Of a DNA stretch of 64,000 nucleotides, positions 876-41,679 are shown piece after piece (the first letter of the stretch is position 1; each line of letters opens with the position of its first letter). This DNA is from an uncultured Gammaproteobacteria bacterium (GTDB lineage Bacteria; Patescibacteriota; Microgenomatia; Levybacterales; UBA12049). Under the pieces are notes generated by a model that searched no databases, had not been told where the DNA came from, and was given only the letters and a program-made list of their open reading frames with translations. Location of the stretch: contig CAZFRF010000001.1 in NCBI GenBank assembly GCA_964521295.1, positions 206,146-270,145 on the forward strand, read 5' to 3'. The position numbers and the translations under genes were made by a program.

Positions 876-876
876 A

Positions 877-1557: not shown

Positions 1558-1563
1558 TAATAA

Positions 1564-3461: not shown

Positions 3462-3509
3462 CATTTTCCCACTTGAACAATGATAGTGTTATTACGATAT
3501 AATTATTAA

Positions 3510-4763: not shown

Positions 4764-4769
4764 TTAGAT

Positions 4770-6489: not shown

Positions 6490-6567
6490 AAGTTTAAATA
6501 TAATACGCTCAAATTATACATATTTCAACAGTTTGAATATACTTTGCATTTTTGTTATTCTTTAATT

Positions 6568-6972: not shown

Positions 6973-7011
6973 GTTTGAAAAGATAGTCAATAAAAGATAT
7001 AATACATACTG

Positions 7012-7236
7012 ATGTTAGTCTTAATTATAAACATCCTAGATATTATTGCAGCTATAGCTTTAATTTGCTTAGTTCTTCTACAAATGCAAGGTAGTGGATT
7101 GTCAGGAGCTTTTGGAGGAGCAGGAGAGTTTTATAGAAGCAAAAGAAGTATAGAGAAATTGCTAATTTGGGCTACAATTGTTGTAACCATAATTTTTGGT
7201 ATTACATCTTTGCTTCTTTTAATTCCTCTAAAATAA
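7012..7236 (+). CDS. secG: Preprotein translocase subunit SecG
   Basis: 74 aa with two TM helices and the SecG signature LLQ-x-G-x-G-x-GL-x-AFGG (LLQMQGSGLSGAFGGAG). Confidence 0.7.
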   Translation: MLVLIINILDIIAAIALICLVLLQMQGSGLSGAFGGAGEFYRSKRSIEKLLIWATIVVTIIFGITSLLLLIPLK

Positions 7237-7242
7237 CAAATT

Positions 7243-8607
7243 ATGATTTTCTTAAAAAGAAGAAGATTAATTTTCTGGTTAATAAAAGCCTATATCAAAA
7301 GGTGGAGAAAAACTATTTTAATTTCCTTTGTTTTTGGGCTGATTGCTTTCTTCCTTCTTCGCTACGGAGTAAACTATTTCGTTCCCCTACTTCCTTTTGT
7401 TCATGAAGAAAAAATTGGAATTGAAGGCGCTTATACAATTGATACATTACCTTCGACAATTATTTCTAAAGTTTCTGTTGGTTTAACTAAATTTGACGCA
7501 AATTATAAACCAATTCCAGGTGTTGCTAAGAAATGGGAAATAAAAGATAACGGTAAGACATACATTTTTTATCTCAAAGATAATATTAATTTCAGCGACA
7601 AGACAAAACTTACTTCAGACTTAATAAAATACAATTTTATAGGTGTAAATACACAAACACCTAATGACTCAACAATTGTTTTTAGACTCAAAAATAGCTA
7701 CGCGCCATTTTTGGTTACCGTAACTAGACCAATTTTTAAATCAGGGTTTGTAGGAATTGGAGATTATAAAGTTCAATCGGTTAAGTTAAATGGAGATTTT
7801 GTACAATCAATTACTTTAAGATCTCTAAAACAACAAAAAACTGTTTTAATTTATCAATTTTATCCCACTCAAGAAGCTTTAAAGACAGCTTTTGTTTTAG
7901 GGGAAATTGATAAGGCAATCAATTTAACAGATGTTAAGTTTAAAGATACTTCTTTTGAAAAGTTTCAAGGAGTAAATGTTTCCAGAAGGCTTGATGATCA
8001 AAACTTAGTAACTCTTTTTTACAATACAATTGATAAAAATTTATCAGATAAAAGACTTAGAGAGGCAATTGCCTATGCTATTCCCGATAAGTTTATGCAA
8101 GGATACAGAAATCATGGTCCTTTTTCTCCAAAATCATGGGTAAATAGTCCAAATTTAGCAACGTATACTCAGGATTTTGAACACGCAAAGCTTTTACTGG
8201 ATAATTCCGATTCATTTAAAGCAAATAAAAATGGGATTGCGTTTGAATTAAAAACTTTTCCTAAGTATGAGAGCTTAGCTAAAATTATTCAAAATAATTT
8301 AAAGAAATTAAATATACATATCAAAATTACCGTTGTTGATTCTCTGCCTACACAGTTTCAAATGTTTTTAGGCGATTTTAGGGTTCCTAGAGATCCAGAT
8401 CAATACATACTTTGGCATTCTTCCCAGGAAGACAATATTACAAAATATAAGAATTTAAGGATTGATAAGCTTTTAGAAGACGGAAGAGAAGTTAATTCAA
8501 TAGAAGAAAGAAAGAAGTTGTATACAGATTTTCAGAAGTACTTACTTGATGATCCTCCCGCAACTTTTCTTTTATTCCCCTATCTCTTTGATGTTAGTAG
8601 AAAGTAG
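7243..8607 (+). CDS. ABC transporter substrate-binding protein, family 5 (oligopeptide/nickel type), apparently short at the C-terminus
   Basis: N-terminal TM anchor. SBP_bac_5-like blocks GLTKFDANYKPIPGVAKKWEIKDNGKTYIFYLKDNINFSD and downstream conserved segments. At 454 aa it is shorter than typical family-5 SBPs. Its 3' end overlaps uvrC tail-to-tail. Confidence 0.65.
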   Translation: MIFLKRRRLIFWLIKAYIKRWRKTILISFVFGLIAFFLLRYGVNYFVPLLPFVHEEKIGIEGAYTIDTLPSTIISKVSVGLTKFDANYKPIPGVAKKWEIKDNGKTYIFYLKDNINFSDKTKLTSDLIKYNFIGVNTQTPNDSTIVFRLKNSYAPFLVTVTRPIFKSGFVGIGDYKVQSVKLNGDFVQSITLRSLKQQKTVLIYQFYPTQEALKTAFVLGEIDKAINLTDVKFKDTSFEKFQGVNVSRRLDDQNLVTLFYNTIDKNLSDKRLREAIAYAIPDKFMQGYRNHGPFSPKSWVNSPNLATYTQDFEHAKLLLDNSDSFKANKNGIAFELKTFPKYESLAKIIQNNLKKLNIHIKITVVDSLPTQFQMFLGDFRVPRDPDQYILWHSSQEDNITKYKNLRIDKLLEDGREVNSIEERKKLYTDFQKYLLDDPPATFLLFPYLFDVSRK

Positions 8608-22051: not shown

Positions 22052-23383
22052 TTAAGACAATTTGAATTTAAATTTATTAAATAAATTATATTTTAAATTG
22101 ATAAACATTTTTAAATAAAAAACTAAAAATATAATAATCGTTGCTGCGCTCACGAAATAAGAAAAATTAACGCTTAATACAAGGTCTTCAAATTGTTGAA
22201 AAAGAAATAGTTCGTATTCTGAAATTACATAAAGGTTAATAAAGTGTAAAAAGCTTAAGAAAAGATACAAGGCCCAATATTTGTTCTTTAACGCTACCCA
22301 GGTAATCATTAATGGAAAAATTGGATACAAATATCTTTCGTGCATTTTAGGCAAAAATAAGAATCCTGCAAAAAGTACCATAAAAGATATAAAAAATAGC
22401 ATTTCAGTATTTGGTTTTTTTGACTTAATAATTTTTATTATTTGTAAAATCATAGGTATACAAATAACAGCAAACAAACCGTATGCCCACCAGAGAATAT
22501 TGATATTTAAGAAAGATTTAATAAATAACTGCGTAGTTGCTAGTCTTAAGGGGTTAAGTAGTAGCCACCAAAAATTATATGCATTTACCGTGATCGTTTG
22601 TTCTATGCCATTGGCTATATAGATAAAAGAATTAAATGCTGAGAAAGGATTTTGCCAGAAAGGAAAAGAAAGAGTCGTAAATAAAATTATATTTAAGACA
22701 AAAGGTTTAATAAATAACTTAGGTTTAATAAAGTTACCAAAAATCATAAAAAGAAGATAAAATGGCATAACAGGAAAAAGAGAAAATTTAGTAAATATTG
22801 ATAAGAATAAGAAGAATACAGTTAAAAAGCTGCGTTTTTTAATAAGAAAAACAATTGATAAGTAGAAAAATAAATTATTAATAGAATCCATTTGTCCCCA
22901 AACTGAACTGTTATAAATAATTGGAGGACCTAATAAATATAGAGCGCTTGCAAGTAAGGATTTTTTCTCGCCAATATAGCCTCGTAAAAATAAATATATA
23001 AATAGTCCTAAAATTAAATCAGCAATAATTGAAGGAAATCTTATAAAAAATACTAGTAAAATATCATTAATCCAATGTGCTTTTCCAGGATCTAAATGTA
23101 GAAAATGAACTAATGTCTTGGCGGTTAACAAAAAGACTTCATATGTTCCCCTTAATACATAAATAGTTCCTGGGGGTTGATCAACATCCCTCATTCCACC
23201 CGGAGATTTTACTGTATAAACCTTATCTATCCCGTAGGAATAACTTTTGTATACCCACTCTTTATAGATGTAAAAATCTACGTGTGGATATCGATGCATT
23301 ACTTGCGTGAAGAAAAAAAGTCTTAGTATAAAAGAAAAAAATATAAGCAGGATTATAAATTTGAAGCTCAACAATTTACTCAC
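22052..23383 (-). CDS. Polytopic membrane protein, putative GT-C-type glycosyltransferase (PMT/ArnT-like)
   Basis: About 12 TM helices with a first extracytoplasmic loop containing an acidic DVDQPPG motif, as in GT39/GT83-type enzymes. Weak assignment. Confidence 0.45.
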   Translation of the reverse strand: MSKLLSFKFIILLIFFSFILRLFFFTQVMHRYPHVDFYIYKEWVYKSYSYGIDKVYTVKSPGGMRDVDQPPGTIYVLRGTYEVFLLTAKTLVHFLHLDPGKAHWINDILLVFFIRFPSIIADLILGLFIYLFLRGYIGEKKSLLASALYLLGPPIIYNSSVWGQMDSINNLFFYLSIVFLIKKRSFLTVFFLFLSIFTKFSLFPVMPFYLLFMIFGNFIKPKLFIKPFVLNIILFTTLSFPFWQNPFSAFNSFIYIANGIEQTITVNAYNFWWLLLNPLRLATTQLFIKSFLNINILWWAYGLFAVICIPMILQIIKIIKSKKPNTEMLFFISFMVLFAGFLFLPKMHERYLYPIFPLMITWVALKNKYWALYLFLSFLHFINLYVISEYELFLFQQFEDLVLSVNFSYFVSAATIIIFLVFYLKMFINLKYNLFNKFKFKLS

Positions 23384-24304: not shown

Positions 24305-25852
24305 TTATGTTATGCCGCCATCGTCTAGTGGCCTAGGACACCTGGTTTTCAGCCAGGGAATCAGGGGTTCGACTCCCCTTGGCGGTACTAAAGTTGTTTT
24401 TTCTACGTTGGCATTAGCGATTAGCTTGAAAGGAAGGCCTAACTCCTCGGTTCCAATATCATCATCTTTATAATAAATACCTTTTGGAAACAAAAGCTGT
24501 TGGAATCTTAACTTTTGATCAAAGGGTGCATCTAGCCATATTGTAGATACCTTCTTAAATAACTCTTCAGAAAGACTCATTAAATAGTCTATGTCTGCGT
24601 CAATGTTCTTAATTTCGTCTCTTTCCACTTCGTTGGTGACAATATTAGCTTTGACGATTTCCATTTGTTCTTTAAAATCATCATCTGAGATTATTCCTTT
24701 TAAATTCTTTTCAAGCAACATTTGCCTTCGAATGTTAAGATTATGTAGGCCTTTATCTATTCTTGCTTTATCTACAAGTACTGACTGTTGTTTCATTTTC
24801 CAAACATCTGTCAATATTTCCTTAAAAAGTTTAATAAATGCTTCATTAGGTTGTATTTGCTTTAATAAATAAATAAAAGATTCTTCTAGGCGTTCTTTTC
24901 TTACTCGTGTTTCTCCGCAAATGCAATGGTAATAAGCGTATTTGTTTGATCGTCCCGTAGACTTGCTTCCTGTTAAATTCTTACCACATGAAAGACACTT
25001 TGCAATTCCTCTTAATGGAAACTCAGGATTGTTAACTATCCTTGGAACTGCTGACACCGATCTTCCCTCACGTACCATCTGAGCCCTCTGAAATAAGTTA
25101 GGTGAGATTATTTTCTCATGTAAGCCTTCTTGCTCATCCCAGTCTTTTACCTTGATTATGCCCATATAAAGCTTGTTCTCTAAAATTTTGGTAACTGTTT
25201 GAGGAGACAATTTATTGTCTTTCTTGGTTCTTACGCCCCATTTATTAAATCTGTCAGTAATTTGTTTTATTGAATAGTTGCCCGAAGCATAAAGCTCAAA
25301 AGCTTGACGAACAAATGTAGCATTTTTTTCATCTATCACCATTCCAGTTGGAGTATTTCTATATCCTAATGGAGGAGCCCATGCCCATAGACCTTGTCTT
25401 ACGCGTTCCTTAAGACCTTCCCGCGTTCTGTCTGCTCGAACATCATTATCGAATTGAGCAACTGCAGCAAACATATTTTCTAAGAATTTTCCAGTCGAAC
25501 TTTCATCAATATTTTCATTCACTGATCTTAGAACAACACCGCATCTTGATAATGCAGCTCTAATGTAATGATGATCGTCCGCTTGCCTTGCAAACCTATC
25601 TATTTTGTGGACTAACACAGCATCTACTTTACCTTTGTTCTTTATGCAATATTCAAGCATTTTGCCAAGCTGAGTTCTATCAGCTGATCTAGCTGATTCT
25701 CCTTGTTCTTCAAATATTTGAAGAACATTCCAGCCCTGCTTTTCAGCATACTCGCTACATAGTTTTCTTTGAGAATCGAGACTATAACCCTGAAGCTGTT
25801 CTTTAGAGCTTACTCGGGTATAGACAACAACATTCATAATACTCTTACTCAT
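24305..25852 (-). CDS. Large serine recombinase (resolvase/invertase-type integrase)
   Basis: N-terminal resolvase domain VVVYTRVSSKEQ...GYSLDSQR with conserved Arg/Asp residues, recombinase domain, zinc ribbon CLSCGKNLTGS...YYHCICG and a coiled-coil tail. The last 28 or so codons are the antisense of tRNA-Glu, so the attachment site is embedded at the gene's 3' end. Confidence 0.85.
   Translation of the reverse strand: MSKSIMNVVVYTRVSSKEQLQGYSLDSQRKLCSEYAEKQGWNVLQIFEEQGESARSADRTQLGKMLEYCIKNKGKVDAVLVHKIDRFARQADDHHYIRAALSRCGVVLRSVNENIDESSTGKFLENMFAAVAQFDNDVRADRTREGLKERVRQGLWAWAPPLGYRNTPTGMVIDEKNATFVRQAFELYASGNYSIKQITDRFNKWGVRTKKDNKLSPQTVTKILENKLYMGIIKVKDWDEQEGLHEKIISPNLFQRAQMVREGRSVSAVPRIVNNPEFPLRGIAKCLSCGKNLTGSKSTGRSNKYAYYHCICGETRVRKERLEESFIYLLKQIQPNEAFIKLFKEILTDVWKMKQQSVLVDKARIDKGLHNLNIRRQMLLEKNLKGIISDDDFKEQMEIVKANIVTNEVERDEIKNIDADIDYLMSLSEELFKKVSTIWLDAPFDQKLRFQQLLFPKGIYYKDDDIGTEELGLPFKLIANANVEKTTLVPPRGVEPLIPWLKTRCPRPLDDGGIT
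24314..24387 (+). tRNA. tRNA-Glu (anticodon TTC); integration target
   Basis: GCCGCCA-TC-GTCTAGTGGCCTAGGAC-A-CCTGG-TTTTCAG-CCAGG-GAATC-AGGGGTTCGACTCCCCT-TGGCGGT-A. Anticodon loop TT-TTC-AG. Coordinates +/-2 nt. Confidence 0.85.
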
Positions 25853-26036
25853 AATTATGATTTCTTTTTGAGGCTAAATCAATACCTGTAGTTGTGTCTT
25901 TGGAACCAACGATATCTGAAATAACTCCAGCTAATTTAGTAAAGATATTTATCAATTCCTCAATTTCTCTATCGGTATACTTATCTGAAGATTTACCTAA
26001 TATTTTCCTTGCCTTCTTAACAGAAAATGGCTCCAT
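25845..26036 (-). CDS. Small hypothetical protein upstream of the recombinase (possible directionality factor or regulator)
   Basis: 63-aa ORF overlapping the recombinase start by 8 nt. No recognisable motif. Confidence 0.3.
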   Translation of the reverse strand: MEPFSVKKARKILGKSSDKYTDREIEELINIFTKLAGVISDIVGSKDTTTGIDLASKRNHNYE

Positions 26037-26121
26037 AATATTAGTATGTGGGAATATGTGGCCAAGTGTAAGATTAGGGCACTTTTTGTACTCAATTTAC
26101 AAGACAATTACGCTCAGAGGA

Positions 26122-26331
26122 TTAGATCAGATCTCTTGCTTTAGCTCCTAAAGCTTTTGCAATTTTGTTGAGAGAGTCTATACTTGGTCTACGCTGGCCC
26201 GTCTCTAATAAGCCAATGAAGGTTGTACTTAACCTTACTTTATCAGCTAATTCCTCTTGTGTTAATCCTACTTGCTTTCTCATTCTTTTTAAACGATTAG
26301 CAAAAGCTTTGTCCTTATTGGTTATTGCCAT
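26122..26331 (-). CDS. XRE-family (Cro/CI-type) HTH regulator
   Basis: 69 aa. LKRMRKQVGLTQEELADKVRLSTTFIGLLETGQRRPSIDSLNKIAKAL matches the HTH_XRE core. Divergent from two small cargo genes. Confidence 0.8.
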   Translation of the reverse strand: MAITNKDKAFANRLKRMRKQVGLTQEELADKVRLSTTFIGLLETGQRRPSIDSLNKIAKALGAKARDLI

Positions 26332-26424
26332 ATGCTAAGGCTAGCAAGAATTGGCAAATAAGTTTATTAACTACAAGTACAGATTTCATAGCTAAAACTA
26401 TTGACATTTTACTAACTGACAGTT

Positions 26425-26790
26425 ATGCTCATTCCGATGGAGAAAAATAAAAAAAATTGGTTATCCTCCTTGCTAATAGTAATTTTTGGGCCTTTTGGCA
26501 TGTTCTTTTGGGGTTTACGAGTAGGATTAGCTTCTCTAGTAGGAATTGCTGTCTTTATACTAATAACAACTATTTTAAGCTATGGAGTAGATATCAAATA
26601 TCAACTCCTCATAAGGATTGTTTACTTAATCATTCACGTTAAATTATTAAGAATGGATGATCAAGAGACCGAAAACCTAAGACATATAGGAGTCAAAGAG
26701 TTCTTATACCTGTCAAGCATGATTCTTTTAAACTTCCTTTTTTTTGGATTCCTGGGATTTATTGCTATTTCAATATTGAAGAGGTTCTAG
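26425..26790 (+). CDS. Small membrane protein (island cargo)
   Basis: 121 aa with three TM helices. No motif. Confidence 0.4.
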   Translation: MLIPMEKNKKNWLSSLLIVIFGPFGMFFWGLRVGLASLVGIAVFILITTILSYGVDIKYQLLIRIVYLIIHVKLLRMDDQETENLRHIGVKEFLYLSSMILLNFLFFGFLGFIAISILKRF

Positions 26791-27156
26791 ATGAAAAACA
26801 AAATTATAGCTATTTTTGTTTTGACGATTATTGTATTCGCAATAACAGTGTTTGACATTAATCATACAATATCCAAGTTTGAAGCTGAGCAGCTTGTGAA
26901 GTCCCAATCTGAAGTCGCAAAATTAACAGCAGATACTACAATAAACTGGCATGTTGATGCAATTAATAAAGAAGATTATTGGATAGTTCAGGTTTATCAA
27001 GTTGTTCAGTATAAAGATCATCCGGAAAACAATCATGAGTCTACATTTAATTGGTACAAAGTTGATAAAAAATCTGGTCAAATTACCTGCTCTATGTTCT
27101 TATATGATTCAAAAGGTGTATTAAATAAAAATGGGAAAGTAAATAATTGCTACTAG
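26791..27156 (+). CDS. Small secreted/anchored protein (island cargo)
   Basis: 121 aa with an N-terminal signal/anchor and a Cys pair. ATG overlaps the stop of the previous gene. Confidence 0.4.
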   Translation: MKNKIIAIFVLTIIVFAITVFDINHTISKFEAEQLVKSQSEVAKLTADTTINWHVDAINKEDYWIVQVYQVVQYKDHPENNHESTFNWYKVDKKSGQITCSMFLYDSKGVLNKNGKVNNCY

Positions 27157-27325
27157 ATGTCTTCTTTCTAACGACTAGCTTATCGGTTCAAGACACGATC
27201 AGTAATCTTGAAATGAGACGAAGTTCTGACTTTAAAGCTATTTAAATTTGTAAAAATCCCCTCAAACGTCTATAAACTATAAATCCTGCGGTACTAATCT
27301 TGACTACGAAGGTTTTTAAACTCTA

Positions 27326-27360
27326 GCTATGTAATACATTACATGTATTTAATTACACAG
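27326..27360. repeat. Third, more divergent copy of the TGTAAT/ATTACA palindromic motif (ctatGTAATACATTACATGtatttaattacacag)
   Basis: TGTAAT-AC-ATTACA at 27330-27343, followed by an inverted gtgtaatt half-site. Confidence 0.45.
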
Positions 27361-27475
27361 CTAATAATTTTGCAATTAAATAACTTTACTATCTTATAAT
27401 ATCATACTTTAGCTTCAATTGTAAGAAATCTGCGCCAGTAAATAGCTTCTTCTTTACTTTGTTCAAGATACTGCT

Positions 27476-27520
27476 GGGACTCCCAAGCGTTTTTAATGTG
27501 TAATCATTACATGTTTTGAT
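27476..27520. repeat. Imperfect direct repeat copy A (gggactcccaagcg...ttaatGTGTAATCATTACATGtttt) containing the palindrome TGTAAT-C-ATTACA
   Basis: Compared by eye with copy B at 30913-30960. Both share gactcc, tttta and GTGTAATC[A/G]TTACAT in the same order. The palindrome lies at 27499-27511. Confidence 0.6.
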
Positions 27521-27571
27521 GGTATATATTTATGTCAATACAATCATGAAATGGGATCTATCTGCGTAAGA

Positions 27572-28765
27572 CTAATTGAGTGGTGCGTCAGGCTTACTTA
27601 TGTTCTTAATTAATTCTACAAGCTTTGCTGCTTTATTATCAAAATATTCTTTATAGAATTGGCTTGAATTCATTTGAATAATTTCAATCTTCTCTGGACT
27701 TATTTGCTTAACGTTATAGATTTTGCTACTTATATCTGACTCTTGTATTCTTTTTATTTTATCAGCAATTTTCTTTGATATTTCTTTAGGATTTTTTTCA
27801 CCCTTAAATGGAGAAACAATTATTAGTTTTTTTTCAGGATATTTATTTACAGATTCAATAATTAAATTATTGATATATGTGTCAAAAAAGCTATATCCGA
27901 TTATAATAAAGAAATCTCTTTCATCAAGAATTTCTTTGAATCGAAAGGTCAAGCTAAGAAAAGGGTCGACAGATAACATTTTCGCCTCTTGTCCAAATAT
28001 TAGAAGTGGAATAAATGAGGTGAGGGGTAATTTATCTTCTTTTCTAACTTGTCCCTTCATTATTTCATCGTCAACACCTGCTATAGATTTTGTCCAGTTT
28101 AAAGAACCGTGTATTTTGTAGTAATTCATCCTATATTTTTCAACCTGATCTTGGCTATCAAACGCATTTTGCCAATCTCCTGATTGAAAACCATCGTTCA
28201 ATACAGTTTCAGCTGATGTGTTAAAGAATTTTTCAAAAACAAGATCATAGTTTATTGTAAAAAAATCCAGAACAAATGGTTTATCGCTAGTATCAGTAAG
28301 AAATTGTTTAACTGGAGTAAGTAACGTCTGTGATTTGGGAGCATCAAAAGATAACCAATTTGGTAGATATGTATATTCAATCTTAGAAAGCAAAGTCTTA
28401 AAAACATCTTGTTCCCTATACTCAAATTTTAATATCTTTTCACTCCAATTGCCTACCATCGGATGAGGAATTATATAGTCACGATTGACAATTTTTCTTA
28501 AAAGAAATACAAATTCTTCGATATTTGGAATATAATCCGTTTGCTTTGAAGCAATATTTTTCCAACTTTTTTGGTATTCAAGACAAGAAATAATAAATCT
28601 AAAAATTTCAACTTCATCCTTATTTCCTTCATGCTCTATTATTCGACCAAGGTCATCAATCATCATTTTTGAAGTTTTACAACCAGCCTCAACCGTAGCG
28701 CCCGCTCCTGTAAAAAAAACTACCTTTTTTGATAATTCTTCAAGTGTCATGCTTAAATAAACCAA
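27572..28765 (-). CDS. Sir2-family (DHS-like NAD-binding) effector protein, pAgo-associated
   Basis: N-terminal VVFFTGAGATVEAG (cf. Sir2 GAGIS-x-SGIP NAD-binding loop). TINYDLVFE (cf. TQNIDxL). YYKIHGSLNW (cf. the catalytic-His motif LHGSxxW of Sir2 NADase domains in ThsA/DSR/SPARSA). The start overlaps the pAgo stop by 13 nt. About 150 aa of C-terminal extension of unknown fold. Confidence 0.7.
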   Translation of the reverse strand: MVYLSMTLEELSKKVVFFTGAGATVEAGCKTSKMMIDDLGRIIEHEGNKDEVEIFRFIISCLEYQKSWKNIASKQTDYIPNIEEFVFLLRKIVNRDYIIPHPMVGNWSEKILKFEYREQDVFKTLLSKIEYTYLPNWLSFDAPKSQTLLTPVKQFLTDTSDKPFVLDFFTINYDLVFEKFFNTSAETVLNDGFQSGDWQNAFDSQDQVEKYRMNYYKIHGSLNWTKSIAGVDDEIMKGQVRKEDKLPLTSFIPLLIFGQEAKMLSVDPFLSLTFRFKEILDERDFFIIIGYSFFDTYINNLIIESVNKYPEKKLIIVSPFKGEKNPKEISKKIADKIKRIQESDISSKIYNVKQISPEKIEIIQMNSSQFYKEYFDNKAAKLVELIKNISKPDAPLN

Positions 28766-30807
28766 AGTGTCTTTTTGGCAATCTTCGAGTTTGGTAATCC
28801 ATTTGAGAAGTAATAAGCCTTTTCGGACAACTCTTTGGCATATTCAATTGTGACTGGGACAGCTTTCTGTTTAATGGATCTCCAATACAACCTTGAAAAT
28901 TCATATACTTGGTCTAATAGGTCTATAACTTCATTTTTGTCCCTAATGTCTACGCCGTTATGAGCAGTTATAGTGATTTTTACTGGGTATTTATCATCAC
29001 CTTTATAAGTTGAGATATCGTCACTGTGTCTTTCATTATTGAATAAAATAAATACACTTTTTTTAAGTTCGACAACGGTTCCGCTAACTGGGATTTTACC
29101 AGGATAACTTTTATCAAAGCATATGTAATCTTTTGCTCTAGTATCATTTATATTAAGGACAGTATATGGAATATTTAAGTTGAGATTTTTAAATACTTCC
29201 GCTAAAGTTGCTGACTCTTTGTTTCCCCACTCTTTAAAATAATGAATTATTAATTTTTGAGGCTCTCCGTTTTCTACTATGTGATTATTAATGGCGTCTT
29301 CAAGGCTTTTTTTTAAATTTTCTTGTGTATACTCAAAGCAACTTAAATCCTTAAAAACTCCACTATTATTAAAACATACAGTATTCCCAATGTACCTAGT
29401 TCCACCAGGAGATTTAATAATTTTTTCTCCAAAACCAACCAACAAACAGTTACCTAAGTCTCTCTTTAATTTCCAAGGTATTCCTCCAACTTTAGCTAAA
29501 ATTGCAATCGCCATATTAGGAAGATAAAAATGTATAGCTTGTGATTTAAGCTTTATAGATTCAATAACCTGAGAAGTAATGTTTAAATTTAAAAGCGATT
29601 CTTTTATTTTAAAATAAATTAATTTTTCATCCTCATTTGCTGTTTCTTCGCTAAAAGGGGATATATACAATGCAACATACTTTCTTTGCGAATCAAGTGT
29701 TAAACTTTTTAAGCGTTCTTCTATCTGTTCTAGGGCAGTGTTTGAGCTTTCGAAACTAATAGAATTCTCTATATCCAAGTCGAATGGGATTTTTGAAAAA
29801 CTTTCCAATCCAGGAAAATGTCTATAACCATATTTGAAATATTTATATAGACTATTAGCTATATCTTTATCCGTTTTTGAATAAATAAATATAAACTTAA
29901 CTTTATCTACATCTTCGGGTACAAAATACGGTCCGTAATTTGAGAAACCACGATATGGGTCATACTCAGTTTTTCCTTCCCCGAATTCTAGCAAATTTTT
30001 TTCTCTAGGAATTTCGATTATTTCGCTTTCTTTAAGCTCTCTTAGTCCAGATGCTAGAACCTGAACTCCCCGTGCTATATCTTTTCCTTTTAAGTGTGAT
30101 TCATAAAAAGTTGTTATTAAGCTGTAATGATTTATAAAAGAAAAGTCTTTTGACGATGCAAATGATAATCTAAGATTAGAATCAATTTCTCTATTGAGTA
30201 ATGGCTTGCCGGTTTTGATTATCTCCTCGTCTAAAAATTTTGTTCTGAAAATCTCCTTGTCTAGTAAAACTTTCTTAACAGTTTGATGTTCTAAATTTAG
30301 TTCTGAGATAGATTGTTTATGTATTTTGGAATTTTGACTTCCTAATCCAATCGTTAAGTAGTATTTGTCAAACTGTTTATCAATTTTTAAATTCCATACG
30401 TTATACTCATAATAATCGTCTGTTGTTGCTGGCTGCTTTTTTTCCCAAATCTCCAGATCATCAATGAAATTGGATGCTGTAATAAATTCTTTATGCTGGA
30501 AATAGGATTTAAATTTTGAGGAGAGATACAATGGAATAAAAAATGGTTCTTTTTCAAGATTAAATGTAAATTGCTTCAATTCATTGTCTGCCTCCTCTTT
30601 TTCAAATTTTATACTTACGTGACTATTCTGATGAGCAATCGAGTTTAAATAAGATGCAAAATCGGTACTAGTGTTATTTAGGTTTCGTAGGAGATAATCT
30701 ATGGTAAAAACACGTGAGAATTTGTAGTCTTTTCCCGGCTTAAAGAATATATCTATCGAATCTTTTGGATACGTTATTAATACTTGATTAATTAGTAATT
30801 GCGACAT
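28753..30807 (-). CDS. Prokaryotic Argonaute (pAgo) with catalytically inactive PIWI domain
   Basis: C-terminal PIWI block AIAILAKVGGIPWKLKRDLGNCLLVGFGEK contains the hallmark KxGGxPW/NW motif. The position of the first catalytic Asp (GxDVxH) is occupied by GFGEK, and no RDG motif follows (LIIHYFKEWG). The MID-like region is YVALYISPFSEE...KLIYFKIKES. The roughly 370-aa N-terminal region fits either N/L1/PAZ*-L2 or a fused APAZ. Confidence 0.72.
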   Translation of the reverse strand: MSQLLINQVLITYPKDSIDIFFKPGKDYKFSRVFTIDYLLRNLNNTSTDFASYLNSIAHQNSHVSIKFEKEEADNELKQFTFNLEKEPFFIPLYLSSKFKSYFQHKEFITASNFIDDLEIWEKKQPATTDDYYEYNVWNLKIDKQFDKYYLTIGLGSQNSKIHKQSISELNLEHQTVKKVLLDKEIFRTKFLDEEIIKTGKPLLNREIDSNLRLSFASSKDFSFINHYSLITTFYESHLKGKDIARGVQVLASGLRELKESEIIEIPREKNLLEFGEGKTEYDPYRGFSNYGPYFVPEDVDKVKFIFIYSKTDKDIANSLYKYFKYGYRHFPGLESFSKIPFDLDIENSISFESSNTALEQIEERLKSLTLDSQRKYVALYISPFSEETANEDEKLIYFKIKESLLNLNITSQVIESIKLKSQAIHFYLPNMAIAILAKVGGIPWKLKRDLGNCLLVGFGEKIIKSPGGTRYIGNTVCFNNSGVFKDLSCFEYTQENLKKSLEDAINNHIVENGEPQKLIIHYFKEWGNKESATLAEVFKNLNLNIPYTVLNINDTRAKDYICFDKSYPGKIPVSGTVVELKKSVFILFNNERHSDDISTYKGDDKYPVKITITAHNGVDIRDKNEVIDLLDQVYEFSRLYWRSIKQKAVPVTIEYAKELSEKAYYFSNGLPNSKIAKKTLWFI

Positions 30808-30912
30808 ATAAGTAAATTGTAAATATATTTTACTACATTTCTATACGCCTTACATTATACTCTGTTAACATCTAAACACTGGTATTGATTTAATCCGATT
30901 TAAGTAACATTG

Positions 30913-30960
30913 AGACTCCTTGGGGTCTTTTAGCTCATGGTGTGTAATCGTTACATATTT
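30913..30960. repeat. Imperfect direct repeat copy B (gagactccttggggtcttttagctcatgGTGTAATCGTTACATattt) containing the palindrome TGTAA-TCG-TTACA
   Basis: See copy A. Copies A and B bracket the pAgo-Sir2 operon (27572-30807). The gactccttgggg segment resembles the tRNA-Glu 3' end gactccccttggcgg. Confidence 0.6.
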
Positions 30961-31119
30961 AAGAAAGAAAAAAAGAAGCAAAAAAAGAAAGAATATTTTT
31001 AAATTTTATTAAACTAAAGGACTAATAGACAAAGGCTGGTGTGAGGCTAGGTCTAATGATTGTCTGCCATTGCTCAAGGCTGCTGCGTATTTGGTTCCAA
31101 TTCTCTATAATTTGGGGTA

Positions 31120-32451
31120 CTAAATAACTTCTAATCCTTTGCTTTCGTTATGAACATGTTTAACCATTTTTTCTTGATAGACACGCACTCCTTCTTTTTG
31201 TGGCACGCTATATGAACCATATAAAATATTTCCTTTATATATGCTTGTAATACCTTGATAGATTAAGCTAAGTAATCTATTTTCACCAGTAATTTTATAA
31301 TTCGCTCTAACTATATCTGGAAGTTCTTCTAAAACTCTTCCAAGATTAAGTCCTTCAACTGCTCTTTTAACTCCTAACCAAAATGCATCAGCTAAGAATT
31401 CAAAATCAACTCTTGGTCCATCATAAGTCATAGTATCTGCCATTGCTCTTATTGTTGAATCAATGTTTCCCACTTGAGTAGCGATGTGGTGTGGATAGTC
31501 AAACCATGTGTATGGATGATCAAGATACATGCTTTTTCCGACAGCCTCTAAATCAAGTTCTTCACCCATAGTGGAGACATTACGTGCTAAATTTTGCCAA
31601 GCAGGTCCACCAGAACACATTTGAAAACCTTCAGTAATTAAGGGAAGCTCTTGACCAACTACTTTTTGCGAAACAAATCTTAAATAAGAACTTAAATCTG
31701 GCTTAGAGACTCCTTCGGCTTTTGCAAATTGATCAAGAACAAATTCTCTGTAGGGTGGAATTACTAAACGCTGTCTTCTTTCGTACATAGTTACTGAATC
31801 TAGTAATCTAAAGTTACTTTTTGATGCTCTAACTAGAATTACTGGTTTTCCTCTAAAGAACCCGCTTGATCTTAAAACACTTGGAGGAAGATAATCGCCA
31901 TTTAGATCAGGTAGTTGGGTAATTTCATAAATTCCTAAGATTTTTTCAGTATCCAATCCTCTTTCTGTAAAATGATCAACTCCAACTGATTCTTGCATAG
32001 CATCTCTTGCTTCTAGCTCTCCATAGCCATCGTAAAATGGGTATCTTGCCATTGGTTCTCGCATATCCATATAGCCTCTATATGCGACCGAACCATTTCT
32101 AGCAATTGTTGTAGCGCCAACCCCTTTAAAATTAACGACATATTCCTTGCCATCAATTTCTACAGTTTCATCAGCTTCTAATACTCTTCCGCATTCATAT
32201 GGACTTGACATGATTTTAGTTAAAGCCTGTAAGTCAGTAGAAAAACCAGCATACATATCCGGAGTAACAACGACTCTAAGTCCGCCTTCAACTACTGCTC
32301 TAATCTGAGGGTTGTTGGTGACTAGCGGAGACTCATATAGTGCGCTAGTCATAGCCGGCAATGTATATTCAATATTCGCATGGATTCTGTTATTGCCGTA
32401 AACAGCTAGCACTCTTGGATTAGTTGATATTCTTTCTTTACTTCTATTCAT
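31120..32451 (-). CDS. Uncharacterised 443-aa protein, paralog 1 of a tandem pair
   Basis: Long ORF. About 45-50% identical by eye to the adjacent 443-aa ORF, with shared blocks NIEYTLPA, SSP(Y/F)ECGRVLEAD, V(N)xKGVGAT, LVRASKS(N/H)FRLLDSVTMYER, PLIT(E/Q)G, W(Q/K)NLARNVS and GEELDLEAV. Higher GC than surroundings. No family recognised. Confidence 0.6.
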   Translation of the reverse strand: MNRSKERISTNPRVLAVYGNNRIHANIEYTLPAMTSALYESPLVTNNPQIRAVVEGGLRVVVTPDMYAGFSTDLQALTKIMSSPYECGRVLEADETVEIDGKEYVVNFKGVGATTIARNGSVAYRGYMDMREPMARYPFYDGYGELEARDAMQESVGVDHFTERGLDTEKILGIYEITQLPDLNGDYLPPSVLRSSGFFRGKPVILVRASKSNFRLLDSVTMYERRQRLVIPPYREFVLDQFAKAEGVSKPDLSSYLRFVSQKVVGQELPLITEGFQMCSGGPAWQNLARNVSTMGEELDLEAVGKSMYLDHPYTWFDYPHHIATQVGNIDSTIRAMADTMTYDGPRVDFEFLADAFWLGVKRAVEGLNLGRVLEELPDIVRANYKITGENRLLSLIYQGITSIYKGNILYGSYSVPQKEGVRVYQEKMVKHVHNESKGLEVI

Positions 32452-32452
32452 G

Positions 32453-33784
32453 CTATTTAAATAAAGCCTTTTTCTCTTTGGCTATCTGATCAACCATTGT
32501 TTTTCTATATATCCAACCGCCTTCTGGTGGTGGAGTTCTATATGTATCTGTAAATACCATATGAATATATGCATACTCAATGGCATCAAAAATTCCTTTA
32601 AAAAGTGAATCAGGACCTGTAAAATTGAATTGTCTACGTACATTTTGGGTCATTGTTCGTAAAACAGCATGTAAATCCAAATTAGCAAGACTACCTCTAA
32701 GTCCTTCCCAAACCATGAGCGCTAAGCTATCAAAATCTACTTTAGGGCCACCATCAGTAATTGTGTCTGCAAAGCCCCTAAGCGCCTTATCTATATTCAT
32801 TACATGGTTTGTGACATGATCTTTATAATCGAAAGGAACAGATTGTGATAAATAATCTTTATGTGGCTCTACTGCTTCTAAATCAAGTTCTTCACCTAAA
32901 ACTGAAACATTTCTGGCCAAATTTTTCCATTTTGTCTTTCCTGCAGACATTTCATATCCTTGAGTAATTAATGGCACTTCTTGCCTGAACAATTTTTGAG
33001 TCAAATATCTCAAATATGTATCCATATCTCCAGGTTGTCCTTCAGCCTTATGAAATTGTTCTAAGATTAGCTCTCTTAAACCAGGAATATAAAATTGCAT
33101 TTGTCTTTCATACATAGTTACTGAATCAAGTAGCCTAAAATGACTCTTTGACGCTCTTACTAAAAGAGTAGGTTCTGTAGAAAGTCTATTTTCTTGTTTT
33201 AATACTGCTGGAGAAGTATATTCACCATCTACTCCTGGCATTCTCAGGATTCTATAGATTCCCAAAACTTTTTCTGTATCAATACCTTGCGCTCTTAAGT
33301 CAATTGCATTATCTCGTTCAGACTGTGCATAACGAGCATCTAGTTCGCCAAAACCATGATAAAAAGGATAGACTGCTAAACGATTAAGTACAGCAGTATT
33401 ATTTTCAAAAGCTATTTCACCGTTTCTAAAGACTGACGTTGCGCCAACCCCTTTAATATTTACTGTATACTCGACTCCGTCAATCATGACTGTTGGATCT
33501 GCCTCTAAAACTCTTCCGCATTCAAAAGGACTAGACATAACTGTAACGTCTGCCCTAGCTGCTGGAAGTAATCTAAAATATGTTTGAGGTAAGATTATTA
33601 CTCTTAAATTATCATGGACAACCCTTCTTACATTCGGATCATCAGTTACAGTAAAGGATTCATATTGAGTAACTGTGGTTGCGGGTAATGTATATTCAAT
33701 ATTTGGCACCGTTGATGGACCATATACTCTTGCGATACGGGGATTAGTTGTAATTAATGGTAAAAACTCTTTTGGTTGAGCCAT
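32453..33784 (-). CDS. Uncharacterised 443-aa protein, paralog 2 of a tandem pair
   Basis: See paralog 1. The stop of paralog 2 is 1 nt from the start of paralog 1. Confidence 0.6.
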   Translation of the reverse strand: MAQPKEFLPLITTNPRIARVYGPSTVPNIEYTLPATTVTQYESFTVTDDPNVRRVVHDNLRVIILPQTYFRLLPAARADVTVMSSPFECGRVLEADPTVMIDGVEYTVNIKGVGATSVFRNGEIAFENNTAVLNRLAVYPFYHGFGELDARYAQSERDNAIDLRAQGIDTEKVLGIYRILRMPGVDGEYTSPAVLKQENRLSTEPTLLVRASKSHFRLLDSVTMYERQMQFYIPGLRELILEQFHKAEGQPGDMDTYLRYLTQKLFRQEVPLITQGYEMSAGKTKWKNLARNVSVLGEELDLEAVEPHKDYLSQSVPFDYKDHVTNHVMNIDKALRGFADTITDGGPKVDFDSLALMVWEGLRGSLANLDLHAVLRTMTQNVRRQFNFTGPDSLFKGIFDAIEYAYIHMVFTDTYRTPPPEGGWIYRKTMVDQIAKEKKALFK

Positions 33785-33841
33785 AAGTTCGATATTATAG
33801 GATAATTTAAGCGCATGAGCAAGTTATGCTATCATTAATTT

Positions 33842-34579
33842 ATGAGCGAAGCTAGAAATGATGTTCAACTTATTCAAAGAGCCATTCGTACAGCCCATGA
33901 AATAAAGCGTGCAAAGCAGGGGTATGAACCTGATCATATGTGGGGACAAAATGGTAATGGCTACAAAATTTATGAACACTCATTTAAACCTGTTTTGCAA
34001 GGTGAAACATTACCAAGTCTTATTGCCGGAAACCCTAATCCTGTTGTAGTAGATTTAATGGGGCCTAGTACAATGCTATACACCCTATTCAAGACTTTAC
34101 CACCTGAAGTACATCCAACTGGTTTTTCGCTTGCATTAACAGATTTAAGAAGAAATCCAAAATCCATCGACAAAGATACTGAACTAAATATTACCCATGT
34201 CGTAGGAGATATTCATGCTAAGGATACATGGCAAGCTTTGACACATGCAATGGAACAAAAACTTGGCGATAAAAAAGCAGATTTAGTTGTTTCAAGGGCT
34301 TTGGGTGGACTTTCGCAAATTGCAGTAGATGATGATATGCATGCAATAATAATGGATAAAATCTGGAAAATTACAGCTGATGGAGGTGTAATTATCTTAC
34401 AATTGCCACATACGTACTCTCCTCACACTAAATTTGAAGATAAAGCATTACGATTATTAGCTGATTTACGTGAACAAGGTGCAGAAACTAGATTTGATAA
34501 TCAAGGATCTTTTCCCTTGGTTTATGTTAGAAAACCACTAAATTCTTCTAATAATTTAAATTTTCCCTCCGGTAGTTAA
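33842..34579 (+). CDS. Hypothetical 245-aa protein (possibly Rossmann-like/methyltransferase-like)
   Basis: Divergent from the paralog pair. VVVDLMGPST ... LALTDL ... ADLVVSRALGGL is reminiscent of class I SAM-MTase motifs I, post-I and II, but the match is weak. Confidence 0.4.
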   Translation: MSEARNDVQLIQRAIRTAHEIKRAKQGYEPDHMWGQNGNGYKIYEHSFKPVLQGETLPSLIAGNPNPVVVDLMGPSTMLYTLFKTLPPEVHPTGFSLALTDLRRNPKSIDKDTELNITHVVGDIHAKDTWQALTHAMEQKLGDKKADLVVSRALGGLSQIAVDDDMHAIIMDKIWKITADGGVIILQLPHTYSPHTKFEDKALRLLADLREQGAETRFDNQGSFPLVYVRKPLNSSNNLNFPSGS

Positions 34580-35538
34580 GCGGCCAATTCTTTAAGTGTT
34601 TCTTTAAAAGTACTCAATAGTTTATCGTCATAAATTGAAACAAAAATTATTTCTTTTTTAGCTTTTTTAAATATTTTCTGAATATTTTCCATTTGTTTTT
34701 TATCTAAATTATCAGCTTTTGTAATCGCAATTAATTCATTTTTAGATAATAAATCTGGATTATAATCTTCTAATTCTTTTCTAATAACTTCATAATCGGA
34801 AATAAAATTAGCTGATGCTGAATCTATACAATGAACAATTATTTTAGTTCTCTCAATGTGTTTTAGAAATTTAATGCCTAAGCCTTTACCAGTTGACGCG
34901 CCTTCAATAAGACCAGGGATATCAGCCAGGATTAAGTTGTCCATTGCACCCAGGTTGGGCTCTAAAGTTGTAAATGGGTAATTGCCAATCTTGGGATGCG
35001 CATTAGTTAAAACTTCAAGTAAACTACTCTTGCCTGCATTAGGAAAACCAATCAAACCAATATCGGCAATAAGTTTAAGTTCTAGTTTTAATTCTTTTTC
35101 TTCTCCTGGTTCACCTAGTTCTCTATATTTAGGAGCTTGATTGGTTGCAGATTTAAATTCATTATTGCCTCTTCCACCTTTTCCGCCTGTAGCAACTAAC
35201 ATTGGAGTATCAGTGTCTCTAATTTCAAATTTAATACCCGTAGATAAATCTGTGACCACTGTACCAATCGGTAAATATATTGTCGTATGCTTACCATTTC
35301 TTCCGAAAAGAATTTGTTTTCCTCCTTTTACTCCATCCTCTCCAACAACTTGTTTAGTGTAGGTAAATGTTTGCAAAGCTGAGATATCATTTACGCCTTG
35401 AAAATATACATTTCCACCATTACCACCATTACCGCCATCGGGACCACCACGAGCAGTTTGAGCGTTTCTTTTAAAGGAAGCAGAACCATTACCGCCAGTT
35501 CCAGCTTTAACTTTTATAATAACTTCATCTATTAACAT
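34576..35538 (-). CDS. obg: GTPase Obg (short form without C-terminal extension)
   Basis: N-terminal Obg fold with Gly-rich repeats KAGTGGNGSASF...GGPDGGNGGNGGNVYF. G domain motifs GFPNAGKSS, DIPGLIEGA and TKAD. Confidence 0.9.
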   Translation of the reverse strand: MLIDEVIIKVKAGTGGNGSASFKRNAQTARGGPDGGNGGNGGNVYFQGVNDISALQTFTYTKQVVGEDGVKGGKQILFGRNGKHTTIYLPIGTVVTDLSTGIKFEIRDTDTPMLVATGGKGGRGNNEFKSATNQAPKYRELGEPGEEKELKLELKLIADIGLIGFPNAGKSSLLEVLTNAHPKIGNYPFTTLEPNLGAMDNLILADIPGLIEGASTGKGLGIKFLKHIERTKIIVHCIDSASANFISDYEVIRKELEDYNPDLLSKNELIAITKADNLDKKQMENIQKIFKKAKKEIIFVSIYDDKLLSTFKETLKELAA

Positions 35539-36446: not shown

Positions 36447-37592
36447 ATGAAAAAAATTATTTTCCTAGTCATCATTTCAATTCTATTTTTCTTAGTGTTT
36501 CCTTTAAAAACAAACGCTATATATGATCCCACAGCTTCAGCAAACAACAAATTTGGCATTCATATTCTTTTCCCTGAGGAAATTGATCAAGCAGCAAATT
36601 TAATTAATTCAAGCGGTGGAGACTGGGGATATGTAACTGTACCAATTAGAGATTCAGATAGGGATTTAATTAAGTGGCAAAAATTTATGGATGATTGTAG
36701 AAAATTTCATGTCATTCCCCTTTTAAGAATAGCAACCGATGGAGATTATTTTGTCAAAGGTTCTTGGACCATACCTAGTAATCTATATGTTATAGATTTT
36801 GCTAATTTTTTGGATTCTTTAAATTGGCCTACTAAAAATAGATATGTAATCATTTTTAATGAAACTAATAGAGGTGACGAATGGGGTGGGTCTCCTGATG
36901 CTGCAGCTTATGCCAAAATTTTAGATTTTTCAATTGATGCCTTCAAGAAAAGAAGTGATAAATTCTTCATCATTATGGGTGGACTTGATAATGCTTCAAT
37001 TAATATCCCTGGAACATCAGTTTATCAACTTACCTATCTTCAACAAATGGAAGATGCAGTTCCAGGTCTATTTAAAAAATTAGATGGATTATCTATTCAT
37101 GCGTATCCAAATCCAGCTTTTTCTACAGCCCCAAACTATACAGGAACTAACGGTATTTCTTCATTTAAATTTGAACAAAATTTAGTAAAAGAGTTTAGTG
37201 GAAAAACCTTGCCAGTATTTATTACAGAGACTGGTTGGACATCAACCAAAATCGATATTCCTACACAAATTGAATATTATAAAGAAGCTTTTAAGAATGT
37301 TTGGAATGATAAAACAATTATTGCAGTTACACCTTTTTTACTCCATGCAGAAACTGATCCTTTTAGACAGTTTTCTTTCATTTTAGATAATCACCAAACT
37401 GACTTATATAAAGGTTATCAAGGCATCCCCAAAACCAAAGGTTCACCGCAAATTGAACCTGAAACGATTCAAACTACTGCTAAAAGTGTGGTATTAAGAA
37501 CGAGATATTTTACCTCTGAATTTAGCAAAAATATTGCTAATATGTTTAACCCTCAAGCCAGAAGCTTCATGCGCTGGCTATTTAACTTTTAG
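36447..37592 (+). CDS. Secreted glycoside hydrolase, clan GH-A (GH5-like TIM barrel)
   Basis: Signal peptide. Acid/base NE motif IIFNETNRGDEW. Nucleophile motif PVFITETGWTS. A His in DGLSIHAYP between the two. Confidence 0.6.
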   Translation: MKKIIFLVIISILFFLVFPLKTNAIYDPTASANNKFGIHILFPEEIDQAANLINSSGGDWGYVTVPIRDSDRDLIKWQKFMDDCRKFHVIPLLRIATDGDYFVKGSWTIPSNLYVIDFANFLDSLNWPTKNRYVIIFNETNRGDEWGGSPDAAAYAKILDFSIDAFKKRSDKFFIIMGGLDNASINIPGTSVYQLTYLQQMEDAVPGLFKKLDGLSIHAYPNPAFSTAPNYTGTNGISSFKFEQNLVKEFSGKTLPVFITETGWTSTKIDIPTQIEYYKEAFKNVWNDKTIIAVTPFLLHAETDPFRQFSFILDNHQTDLYKGYQGIPKTKGSPQIEPETIQTTAKSVVLRTRYFTSEFSKNIANMFNPQARSFMRWLFNF

Positions 37593-40639: not shown

Positions 40640-41679
40640 TTGACTTAAATAACCCATTATCTTTTAAAAATTTAGATCCTAAGGATGTTTATGGATCAAC
40701 TGGGCTTTTGGCTGATCAGTGTGAACAAATTTGGGAAGATGCTAAATTATTAACTTTCCCTGATAACTATACTGGTTTTGACAATATAATATTATGCGGA
40801 ATGGGTGGATCTGCCTACAGCAGCTATATAATCCAATCATTATTTAAAGACAAATTAACTGTTCCCTTAATTTATAACAATGACTATGACTTACCTGCAT
40901 TTGCAGATGAAAAAACTTTAATAATTCTTTCAAGTTATTCTGGAACCACTGAAGAATCTCTTGCATGCGCCAATGAGGCAATTGCTAAAAACTTAAAAGT
41001 AACTGCTATAACCAACGGTGGACCACTTTCACAAACACTTAAAACTAATAATATGCCAGCATTAATTTTTGATCCTAAAAATAATCCTTCGGGTCAACCT
41101 AGACTTGGGACTGGTTACATGATTTTAGGCACAATTATTTTACTTACTAAACTTGGAATTTTAAATGTAACTGAAGACGAAGTTAAAGCAGCCATTTCAG
41201 AACTCAGAGCAAATCAAGAAAATATAAAAAAAGCCGCAATTGACCTTGCTCCCCAACTTAAAGATTTCTTCCCTTTAATTATGTGTAGCGGATTCTTACA
41301 TGGCAATGCGCACGTTTTAAGAAATCAATTTAACGAAACATCTAAATCTTTTGCTGCATTTGAAGACATTCCTGAATTAAATCATCATTTAATGGAAGGT
41401 TTTAAATATCCTGGAGGGTTAAAAATGAAAACATTATTTTTAGATTCAGATTTGTATGACCCAAAACATTTAAAAAGAATTCAGCTAACTGAAGATGTTG
41501 TTACTAAAAACAATATTCAAAGTGTCCATTTTAAGGCTTTAGGATCAACTAAATTGTCGCAAATGTTTGCTGTTTTAGCTTTTGGTGGATTTGTAACTTT
41601 TTACTTAGGAATTTTATATGGTGAAGATCCAAGCTTAATCCCCTGGGTTGACTACTTTAAGGAACAGCTTAAGAAATAA
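40636..41679 (+). CDS. Bifunctional phosphoglucose/phosphomannose isomerase (SIS-domain PGI/PMI)
   Basis: SIS motif ILCGMGGSAYSS. Second SIS half ILSSYSGTTEES. Length of about 347 aa typical of the archaeal-type PGI/PMI. Confidence 0.75.
   Translation: MIDLNNPLSFKNLDPKDVYGSTGLLADQCEQIWEDAKLLTFPDNYTGFDNIILCGMGGSAYSSYIIQSLFKDKLTVPLIYNNDYDLPAFADEKTLIILSSYSGTTEESLACANEAIAKNLKVTAITNGGPLSQTLKTNNMPALIFDPKNNPSGQPRLGTGYMILGTIILLTKLGILNVTEDEVKAAISELRANQENIKKAAIDLAPQLKDFFPLIMCSGFLHGNAHVLRNQFNETSKSFAAFEDIPELNHHLMEGFKYPGGLKMKTLFLDSDLYDPKHLKRIQLTEDVVTKNNIQSVHFKALGSTKLSQMFAVLAFGGFVTFYLGILYGEDPSLIPWVDYFKEQLKK

Follow-up and report, generated by a model that had tools for sequence, protein, structure and literature searches.

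What are the two equal-length, mutually homologous proteins encoded side by side next to obg in this genome, and what reaction might they carry out? The window, by which we mean the whole stretch of 64,000 nucleotides (nt) analyzed here, comes from contig CAZFRF010000001.1 (assembly GCA_964521295.1, positions 206,146 to 270,145 of the forward strand) of an uncultured bacterium placed by GTDB in the Levybacterales. It carries a tandem pair of 443-amino-acid (aa) open reading frames (ORFs), paralogues A and B, together with a divergent 245-aa gene, C. Structure prediction and profile comparison indicate that A and B are very distant homologues, with a kinase-like fold, of SelO/YdiU, which transfers AMP or UMP onto proteins, and we consider it fairly probable that both are active cytoplasmic SelO-like nucleoside monophosphate (NMP) transferases whose substrate domains are diverging. 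The locus is laid out as follows.

32453..33784, minus strand: paralogue B, 443 aa, the first gene of the pair (ORF list)
31120..32451, minus strand: paralogue A, 443 aa, the second gene of the pair (ORF list)
33842..34579, plus strand: gene C, 245 aa, transcribed away from B and toward obg (ORF list)
33785..33841, no strand: the 57-bp spacer between the divergent genes B and C (read from the sequence)
34576-35538, minus strand: obg

Direct searches do not name these proteins. Neither A nor B matches anything in Pfam, NCBIfam, PADLOC or the PDB sequences, and the SelO family (PF02696) is absent from their Pfam results even at E <= 1. The original prediction, made from the letters and a list of ORFs, had found no family to which the pair could be assigned; that statement holds for direct sequence searches and fails for methods that use structure or profiles. 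From the family alignment, we obtained an AlphaFold2 model of B with a predicted local distance difference test (pLDDT) score of 78.8 and a predicted template-modeling (pTM) score of 0.82. The nine best PDB matches returned by Foldseek for this model are all SelO/YdiU structures (6iii, 6k20, 6lna, 6eac, 9jym and others), with E values from 5e-8 to 1e-6, a probability of 1.0 and a template-modeling (TM) score of ~0.47, and the second tier of matches, formed by NIS synthetases and protein kinases, begins at E >= 2e-3. An alignment of 32 family members (alignment A2) also matches Escherichia coli SelO in hhalign with 89% probability and an E value of 2.4e-6.

The Pfam results for the wider family point in the same direction. 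When all 32 members were scanned at a permissive threshold, PF02696 was the sole Pfam family matched by more than one of them (9/32, best E 1.2e-4); all of these matches are sub-threshold, and they run co-linearly with the catalytic core of SelO. The PF02696 score of member P0031 is 21.1 bits, short of the cut-off of 22.8, with E. coli SelO itself scoring 513 bits; the gathering threshold is reached by neither A, nor B, nor any of the 32 family members. Taken together, the Foldseek matches, the hhalign alignment and the repeated sub-threshold PF02696 matches lead us to place A and B as distant SelO/YdiU homologues. A separate candidate, the "conserved metalloprotein" 3d19, which the family profile matched among PDB sequences at E 0.002, is aligned over the C-terminal helices only and was taken as spurious.

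The residues that are invariant across the family, namely R91, K111, G187, R210, R217, N292, E298 and D301, can be compared position by position with those of YdiU. The site that they are predicted to form in B is given here.

Predicted active site of B: R91, K111 (KGVGATxxxR), R210/R217 (RASKSHFRL), N292, E298, D301 (ARNVSVLGEELDLE)

In the hhalign alignment, R91 of the ECGR motif is paired with R87 of the YdiU GDGR motif and K111 with K107, with an R-to-K spacing of 20 in both proteins, and the KGxGxTxxxR motif around the lysine is common to the A/B family and YdiU. The pair R210/R217 falls on R170/R177 with a spacing of 7 in both, and N292/D301 falls on N247/D256 with a spacing of 9 in both. 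In YdiU, R87, K107, R170 and R177 orient the β- and γ-phosphates of a flipped nucleotide, N247 and D256 are metal ligands, with the D256A variant being inactive, and D246 is the proposed general base, whose mutation abolishes self-AMPylation (10.1101/692707). Every invariant phosphate- and metal-binding residue is present in A, in B and in their orthologues. As judged from the aligned residues, A and B appear to resemble SelO at the nucleotide and metal site.

The chemistry that we infer from this fold similarity, homology signal, and residue conservation and spacing would run as follows. A and B would bind a nucleoside triphosphate, either adenosine or uridine triphosphate (ATP or UTP), in the "flipped" orientation of SelO, with the β- and γ-phosphates held by R91, K111, R210 and R217 and a Mg2+ or Mn2+ ion held by N292 and D301. 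In this arrangement the α-phosphate would face the acceptor, so that NMP would be transferred and pyrophosphate released. We leave the acceptor and the general base of A and B unassigned because the SelO base, D246, is replaced by a near-invariant arginine (R291) and because E298 is new to this family. The fast-diverging C-terminal helical domain probably sets the choice of substrate, such that the two paralogues would have different targets. No hydrophobic segment was found in either protein. In this way, two "hypothetical proteins" would acquire a specific hypothesis about their biochemistry, including the residues that mutagenesis could target.

Several observations weigh against reading A and B as SelO-like NMP transferases. 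No direct sequence search puts either protein in SelO, the family profile finds SelO among PDB sequences only at E ~0.7-1.1, and the global superposition of the B model on SelO is loose, with a TM score of ~0.47 and a root-mean-square deviation of ~14 Å. At the active site, the counterpart of YdiU D246 is R291, with no fewer than 90% of members having an arginine there and the rest a serine or cysteine, and the catalytic loop reads W-x-[ND]-L-A-R-N in the A/B family as opposed to HGV...TDN in SelO (HGVMNTDN in YdiU). With an arginine at the D246 position, the reaction may differ from NMPylation of Ser, Thr or Tyr. The invariant E298 likewise has no SelO counterpart, with L253 at the same place in YdiU. 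The C-terminal Cys/Sec-Ser-Ser tail of SelO, needed by that enzyme for hydrolysis of nicotinamide adenine dinucleotide (NAD+) and for self-regulation (PMC13391479; 10.1101/692707), is absent from both A, which ends in ...ESKGLEVI and has 2 cysteines in total, and B, which ends in ...KEKKALFK and has 1. Finally, gene context, described below, provides a small number of hints, picked out post hoc and without conservation throughout the family. Since two defining features of SelO are missing and the Pfam threshold is not reached, we set A and B outside SelO proper and regard them as a SelO-like variant, not as members of SelO.

The alternative that fares best keeps the same SelO-like fold and site and gives it another chemistry, in which adenylylation targets an anionic group such as a carboxylate or a phosphate, carried by a peptide, by a small molecule or by the 5′ end of an RNA, or in which a dinucleotide such as NAD+ is hydrolyzed, and no protein hydroxyl is NMPylated. 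The presence of R291 instead of D246 in almost all members and the newly invariant E298 both speak for it. So do the structural matches next after SelO, the NIS synthetases, which are ATP-dependent carboxylate activators, although these matches are far weaker than those to SelO (E 2e-3 versus 5e-8). Precedents exist among SelO relatives, but neither transfers readily to A and B. MchC/MceJ, a distant SelO subfamily, works in microcin maturation (PMC3281104), yet hhalign of A2 against CFT073 MchC detects no similarity to our family (probability 0.3%), and we rejected MchC as a closer relative. SelO hydrolyzes NAD+ to nicotinamide mononucleotide and AMP (PMC13391479), but this activity needs the C-terminal Cys tail that A and B lack. 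Gene context offers two hints, each of them a single case: a radical-SAM/PqqD peptide cluster that includes an ABC exporter neighbors one family member, and a pair of NUDIX genes precedes another. On this evidence we judge a different chemistry unlikely, while regarding it as the alternative most worth weighing against NMP transfer.

The identity of the residue at the general-base position can be followed into a second group of proteins. The weak tail of the HMMER search described below consists of a sister family of ~340-400 aa (P0056-P0156) that has no Pfam match. We aligned 14 of these proteins (alignment A5; for example P0062-P0144), and hhalign of A2 against A5 gives a probability of 99.7% and an E value of 2.9e-25 over 319 columns, which shows that the two families are clearly homologous; the sister family is also weakly homologous to SelO. 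Like A and B, its members keep the lysine, the R-x6-R pair and the N-x8-D pair. Unlike A and B, they are shorter, with most of the C-terminal helical domain missing, and they carry a SelO-like "HGYLxxHN" loop (HGYLxxHNITLDGxIVDLD) with a histidine before the metal-binding asparagine where the A/B family has an arginine. The residue at the general-base position thus differs among the three groups, with SelO having Asp, the sister family His and the A/B family Arg. To judge by its sequences, the sister family looks like a second undescribed SelO-like family.

A broader proposal would unite A, B and this ~360-aa sister family as an unrecognized SelO-like branch, in which the Asp-to-Arg change in A and B accompanies adenylylation of an anionic acceptor and in which A and B, possibly together with C, form a lineage-specific modification system of bacteria of the candidate phyla radiation (CPR). 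We hold this proposal as a whole to be doubtful, slightly more so than the different chemistry taken by itself. If it is true, adenylylation would spare protein hydroxyls and take place on the carboxylate or phosphate group of a peptide, metabolite or RNA.

The rates at which A and B evolve bear on whether both proteins are active. Between the window and the close relative L001, A is 66% and B 58% identical, as compared with 87-88% for obg, MT282 and C, 91% for p381 and 97% for RNH173. For the ratio of nonsynonymous to synonymous substitution rates (dN/dS) we obtained 0.18 in A and 0.24 in B, whereas the values of five neighbors span 0.02-0.08, with dS being near saturation, and the protein-level change in A and B is about 3-4 times that of their neighbors. 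Values that are above those of the neighbors and yet low indicate functional, faster-evolving proteins under purifying selection. The change is unevenly distributed: the C-terminal helical domain (residues 306-443) retains 43-54% identity between orthologues and 32% between paralogues, and the catalytic loop 74-91% between orthologues. This pattern of divergence fits proteins in which catalysis would be retained and substrate specificity would be shifting.

The same data speak to a further alternative, in which one or both paralogues are a non-catalytic pseudoenzyme or scaffold and the two form an obligate heterodimer with one active subunit. A tandem arrangement with a gap of 1 nt, equal lengths within the pair in two genomes (443/443 and 444/444) and a non-acidic residue at the general-base position would all suit such a role. 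The retention of all invariant phosphate- and metal-binding residues in A, B and their orthologues argues against it, however, as do the purifying selection acting on both proteins and the mostly single-copy nature of the family, and we consider it improbable.

The organization of the locus agrees in its main features with what had been read from the sequence originally. A and B align over 433 aa with 46% identity (BLASTP, E 2e-135), which together with the ORF coordinates confirms two homologous 443-aa ORFs separated by 1 nt, and the conserved blocks named in the original prediction all lie inside this alignment. The A start codon follows the B stop codon at the junction TAGCATG (TAG-C-ATG). 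A heteromeric enzyme, as raised in the original prediction, may be considered in view of this translational juxtaposition and of the catalytic residues kept in both copies, but the distant homologues are single-copy and have no C. The pairing is not due to chance: a second genome retains both genes, and a third retains B. In L001, C, B and A adjoin obg, with a pair of 444 and 444 aa, and in the close relative L087/L088, B and C adjoin obg. The predicted position of the module between an inserted island and obg is likewise upheld by the ORF and insertion mapping, and the 3′ ends of C and obg overlap by 4 nt. Another 443-aa ORF of the window (22052-23383, minus strand), tried as a third paralogue, gave an hhalign probability of 0.1% and was rejected.

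The elevated guanine-cytosine (GC) content noted for this block is genuine yet small. The 3.46-kb A/B/C block has a GC content of 36.2%, 2.8 points above the window mean of 33.4%, which puts it at the 99th percentile among windows of the same size (z = 1.8). At third codon positions, however, its GC content (GC3) is 0.20-0.21, as compared with 0.18-0.22 in obg and the other neighbors. The excess therefore lies in codon positions 1 and 2, that is, in the amino-acid composition, and GC content was rejected as a sign of foreign origin. In the spacer between B and C, a TATAAT ends 11 nt upstream of the B start codon and a TATCAT ends 8 nt upstream of the C start codon, and inspection of the sequence found no obvious Shine-Dalgarno element. 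These features suggest possible back-to-back promoters with very short or absent leaders; consensus scans of the region for promoters and terminators did not rise above shuffled expectation.

Gene C had been proposed as a Rossmann-like partner binding S-adenosylmethionine (SAM) or a similar ligand, an assignment that survives at the level of the fold and only in a low-confidence model. The AlphaFold2 model of C is weak (pLDDT 57, pTM 0.61), and all 50 of its 50 top Foldseek matches are class I methyltransferases, with E values from 2.5e-5 to 6e-4 and TM scores of ~0.4. Motif I is degenerate (VVDLMGPS(T)), the GxGxG SAM-binding loop is not present, and C matches no Pfam or NCBIfam model, including those of methyltransferases. 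On the strength of this tentative model, a class I SAM-methyltransferase fold may be assigned to C. A word-indexed search returned 4 homologues of C, to which a 30%-identical relative in L046 can be added. C is co-located with A and B only in three close genomes, and no C homologue was found beside the distant members of the A/B family.

The A/B family is rare and unannotated, and it occurs in candidate-phyla bacteria. In a word-indexed search of 5.8 billion proteins we found nine members, including A, B and a second tandem pair, and a repeat with the 32-member alignment added none. In an exhaustive HMMER search, the family profile picked out 150 clusters at E < 1e-3 among 1.84 billion cluster representatives, 41 of them below 1e-30. 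A motif scan of GTDB species genomes recovered no relatives, the same kind of scan of JGI metagenome contigs recovered one partial A/B-family locus, and neither viral contigs nor viral structure predictions yielded any. Wherever placement was possible, the hosts are CPR-like.

Distant members of the family are single-copy, which answers in the negative the question raised by the original prediction of whether homologues always occur as pairs. Because these members also lack C, the pairing and the partner gene are specific to the genus and are not a signature of the family, and no partner gene is conserved across the distant members. Some of their neighbors are nonetheless worth recording. MsrA lies 18 bp downstream of the family member in L004, MsrB lies two genes away in L097, and TspO is downstream in L091. 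In L095, two NUDIX genes stand immediately upstream in the same orientation, and in L093/L094 a radical-SAM/PqqD/ABC-exporter cluster and an AAA_15 ATPase are found nearby. The neighborhoods and substrates of SelO are linked to oxidative stress (PMC3281104), and the genes beside the distant members suggest that the A/B family may similarly serve in stress, redox or nucleotide-linked regulation.

How the module came to lie beside obg can be seen by comparing related genomes. The housekeeping genes around it assign the window to Candidatus Levybacteria (CPR/Patescibacteria). Our comparison set comprised 80 other Levybacteria-group loci (species representatives), with 10 kb examined around the neighborhood, and an A/B homologue is present within 10 kb in 0/80. 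In more distant Levybacteria the gene order is tRNA-Lys, mechanosensitive (MS) channel, tRNA-Glu, a variable interval, obg, MT282 and p381. The variable interval measures 0.55 kb in L013, 0.9 kb in L012, 2.7 kb in L009, 7.2 kb in L007 and 10.2 kb in this window. Compared with L001, the window has gained 6.7 kb on the 3′ side of tRNA-Glu, an insertion that runs from about 24392 to 31100. The insertion and its border contain the following features.

24314-24388: tRNA-Glu
24305-25852, minus strand: large serine recombinase, whose ORF overlaps tRNA-Glu
26425-27156: two 121-aa ORFs
27572-28765, minus strand: SIR2 (PADLOC Aga_SIR2, E 1e-63)
28753-30807, minus strand: pAgo (PADLOC pAgo, E 4e-160)

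The SIR2 and pAgo genes, a defense pair, overlap by 13 nt, and neither L001 nor any of the 80-plus related loci has them. Since L001 carries A, B and C without this pair, the pAgo-SIR2 island must be a separate, later insertion; the A-B-C module is older than the island and independent of it, and the position of A and B beside it is coincidental. The module is lineage-specific accessory cargo of the tRNA-Glu-obg interval in one Levybacteria genus. The earlier suggestion of laterally acquired or older island cargo is accordingly supported by comparative synteny, with a variable interval following tRNA-Glu, and not by composition, GC3 being equal to that of the neighbors. In the Levybacteria group, tRNA-Glu seems to serve repeatedly as an attachment site at its 3′ end.

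An imperfect direct repeat of ~45 nt, with copies at about 27470-27516 and 30914-30960, brackets exactly the SIR2-pAgo pair. Its core, TGTGTAATCrTTACATrTTT, is 90% identical between copies and follows the stretch GACTCC..G.GT, similar to the tRNA-Glu 3′ end; the repeat could be a cassette boundary or a recombination site. The tRNA-end-like repeat that had been described as abutting the module does exist at about 30914-30960, but with its second copy it encloses SIR2-pAgo and not A, B and C. A search for repeats of the tRNA-Glu 3′ end at the A-proximal border of the island found none. In L007 (Levybacteria metagenome-assembled genome JBBRCK010000002.1), the corresponding tRNA-Glu site is occupied, at positions 835-8138, by another and different island with a large serine recombinase, whose cargo is a sortase, an ice-binding-like/fn3 surface protein and an rve transposase.

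The least probable alternative, and a very unlikely one, is the anti-phage defense or toxin module raised by the original prediction, in which A and B, as SelO-like enzymes, would upon infection modify targets belonging to the host or the phage, with C as methyltransferase partner and in association with pAgo-SIR2: A, B and C do sit in an integration hotspot adjoining that pair, their distribution is patchy and lineage-restricted, the amino-acid change in A and B is 3-4 times that of neighbors, C weakly matches PADLOC mad2 (E 3e-4) and one distant member adjoins an AAA_15/SMC_N ATPase, but neither A nor B has a PADLOC match, viral relatives are lacking in the contigs and structure predictions searched, dN/dS is well under 1, distant members are single genes among ordinary housekeeping neighbors, and L001 has the module with no adjoining pAgo, SIR2 or recombinase.

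Two further genes of the neighborhood deserve mention. The gene for glucose-6-phosphate isomerase, PGI (window 40672-41676; L001 1677-2708), is 41% identical between the two genomes amid genes at 88-97%, which suggests replacement by a different allele or type, and L002 has a cupin-type GPI at this position. The gene at 36447-37592 (plus strand) has a product of 381 aa that contains a hydrophobic segment near its N terminus and matches nothing in Pfam. Conservation of this protein extends over at least 200 Levybacteria/Microgenomates genomes, where an RNaseH_like gene accompanies it in fixed synteny; obg and a Methyltrans_SAM gene are also adjacent in about 10/80 loci. The protein is widespread and CPR-specific.

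SelO is one of the few kinase-fold "pseudokinases" with non-kinase chemistry, namely AMPylation, UMPylation and NAD+ hydrolysis, and its fold is shared by the coronavirus NiRAN domain. A branch in which the flipped-nucleotide site is kept and the proposed base is changed would illustrate the extent to which evolution can retune such an active site, and it would supply a testable function for dark-matter genes of genome-reduced CPR bacteria.

Among characterized proteins, SelO/YdiU (PF02696; 6eac, 6k20, 6lna, 6iii) provides the best structural match to the B model and shares with the A/B family the GR, KGxGxTxxxR, RxxxxxxR and N-x8-D motifs in the same order and spacing. The proteins are similar in size (443 aa as compared with 478 aa), both have a helical C-terminal domain, and some A/B-family members lie, like SelO, near genes of the kind reported in its oxidative-stress neighborhoods (PMC3281104). 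The A/B family differs from SelO in being sub-threshold for Pfam and very rare, in having R291 at the D246 position and an additional E298, in lacking the C-terminal tail and, in this locus, in being duplicated in tandem. The NIS synthetases (IucA/IucC: SbnC, AlcC, DesD) and classical protein kinases have the kinase-like ATP-binding core in common with A and B, but their structural matches are much weaker (E 2e-3 or worse, TM <= 0.36) and are accompanied by no sequence-level signal. MchC/MceJ, in turn, are SelO-related kinase-like proteins that also fall outside the SelO Pfam model (PMC3281104) and show that SelO-like folds can serve peptide modification; they differ from the present case in their genomic setting, as the HlyC-type acyltransferase (MchD/MceI), microcin and exporter genes are not among the neighbors of A, B and C.

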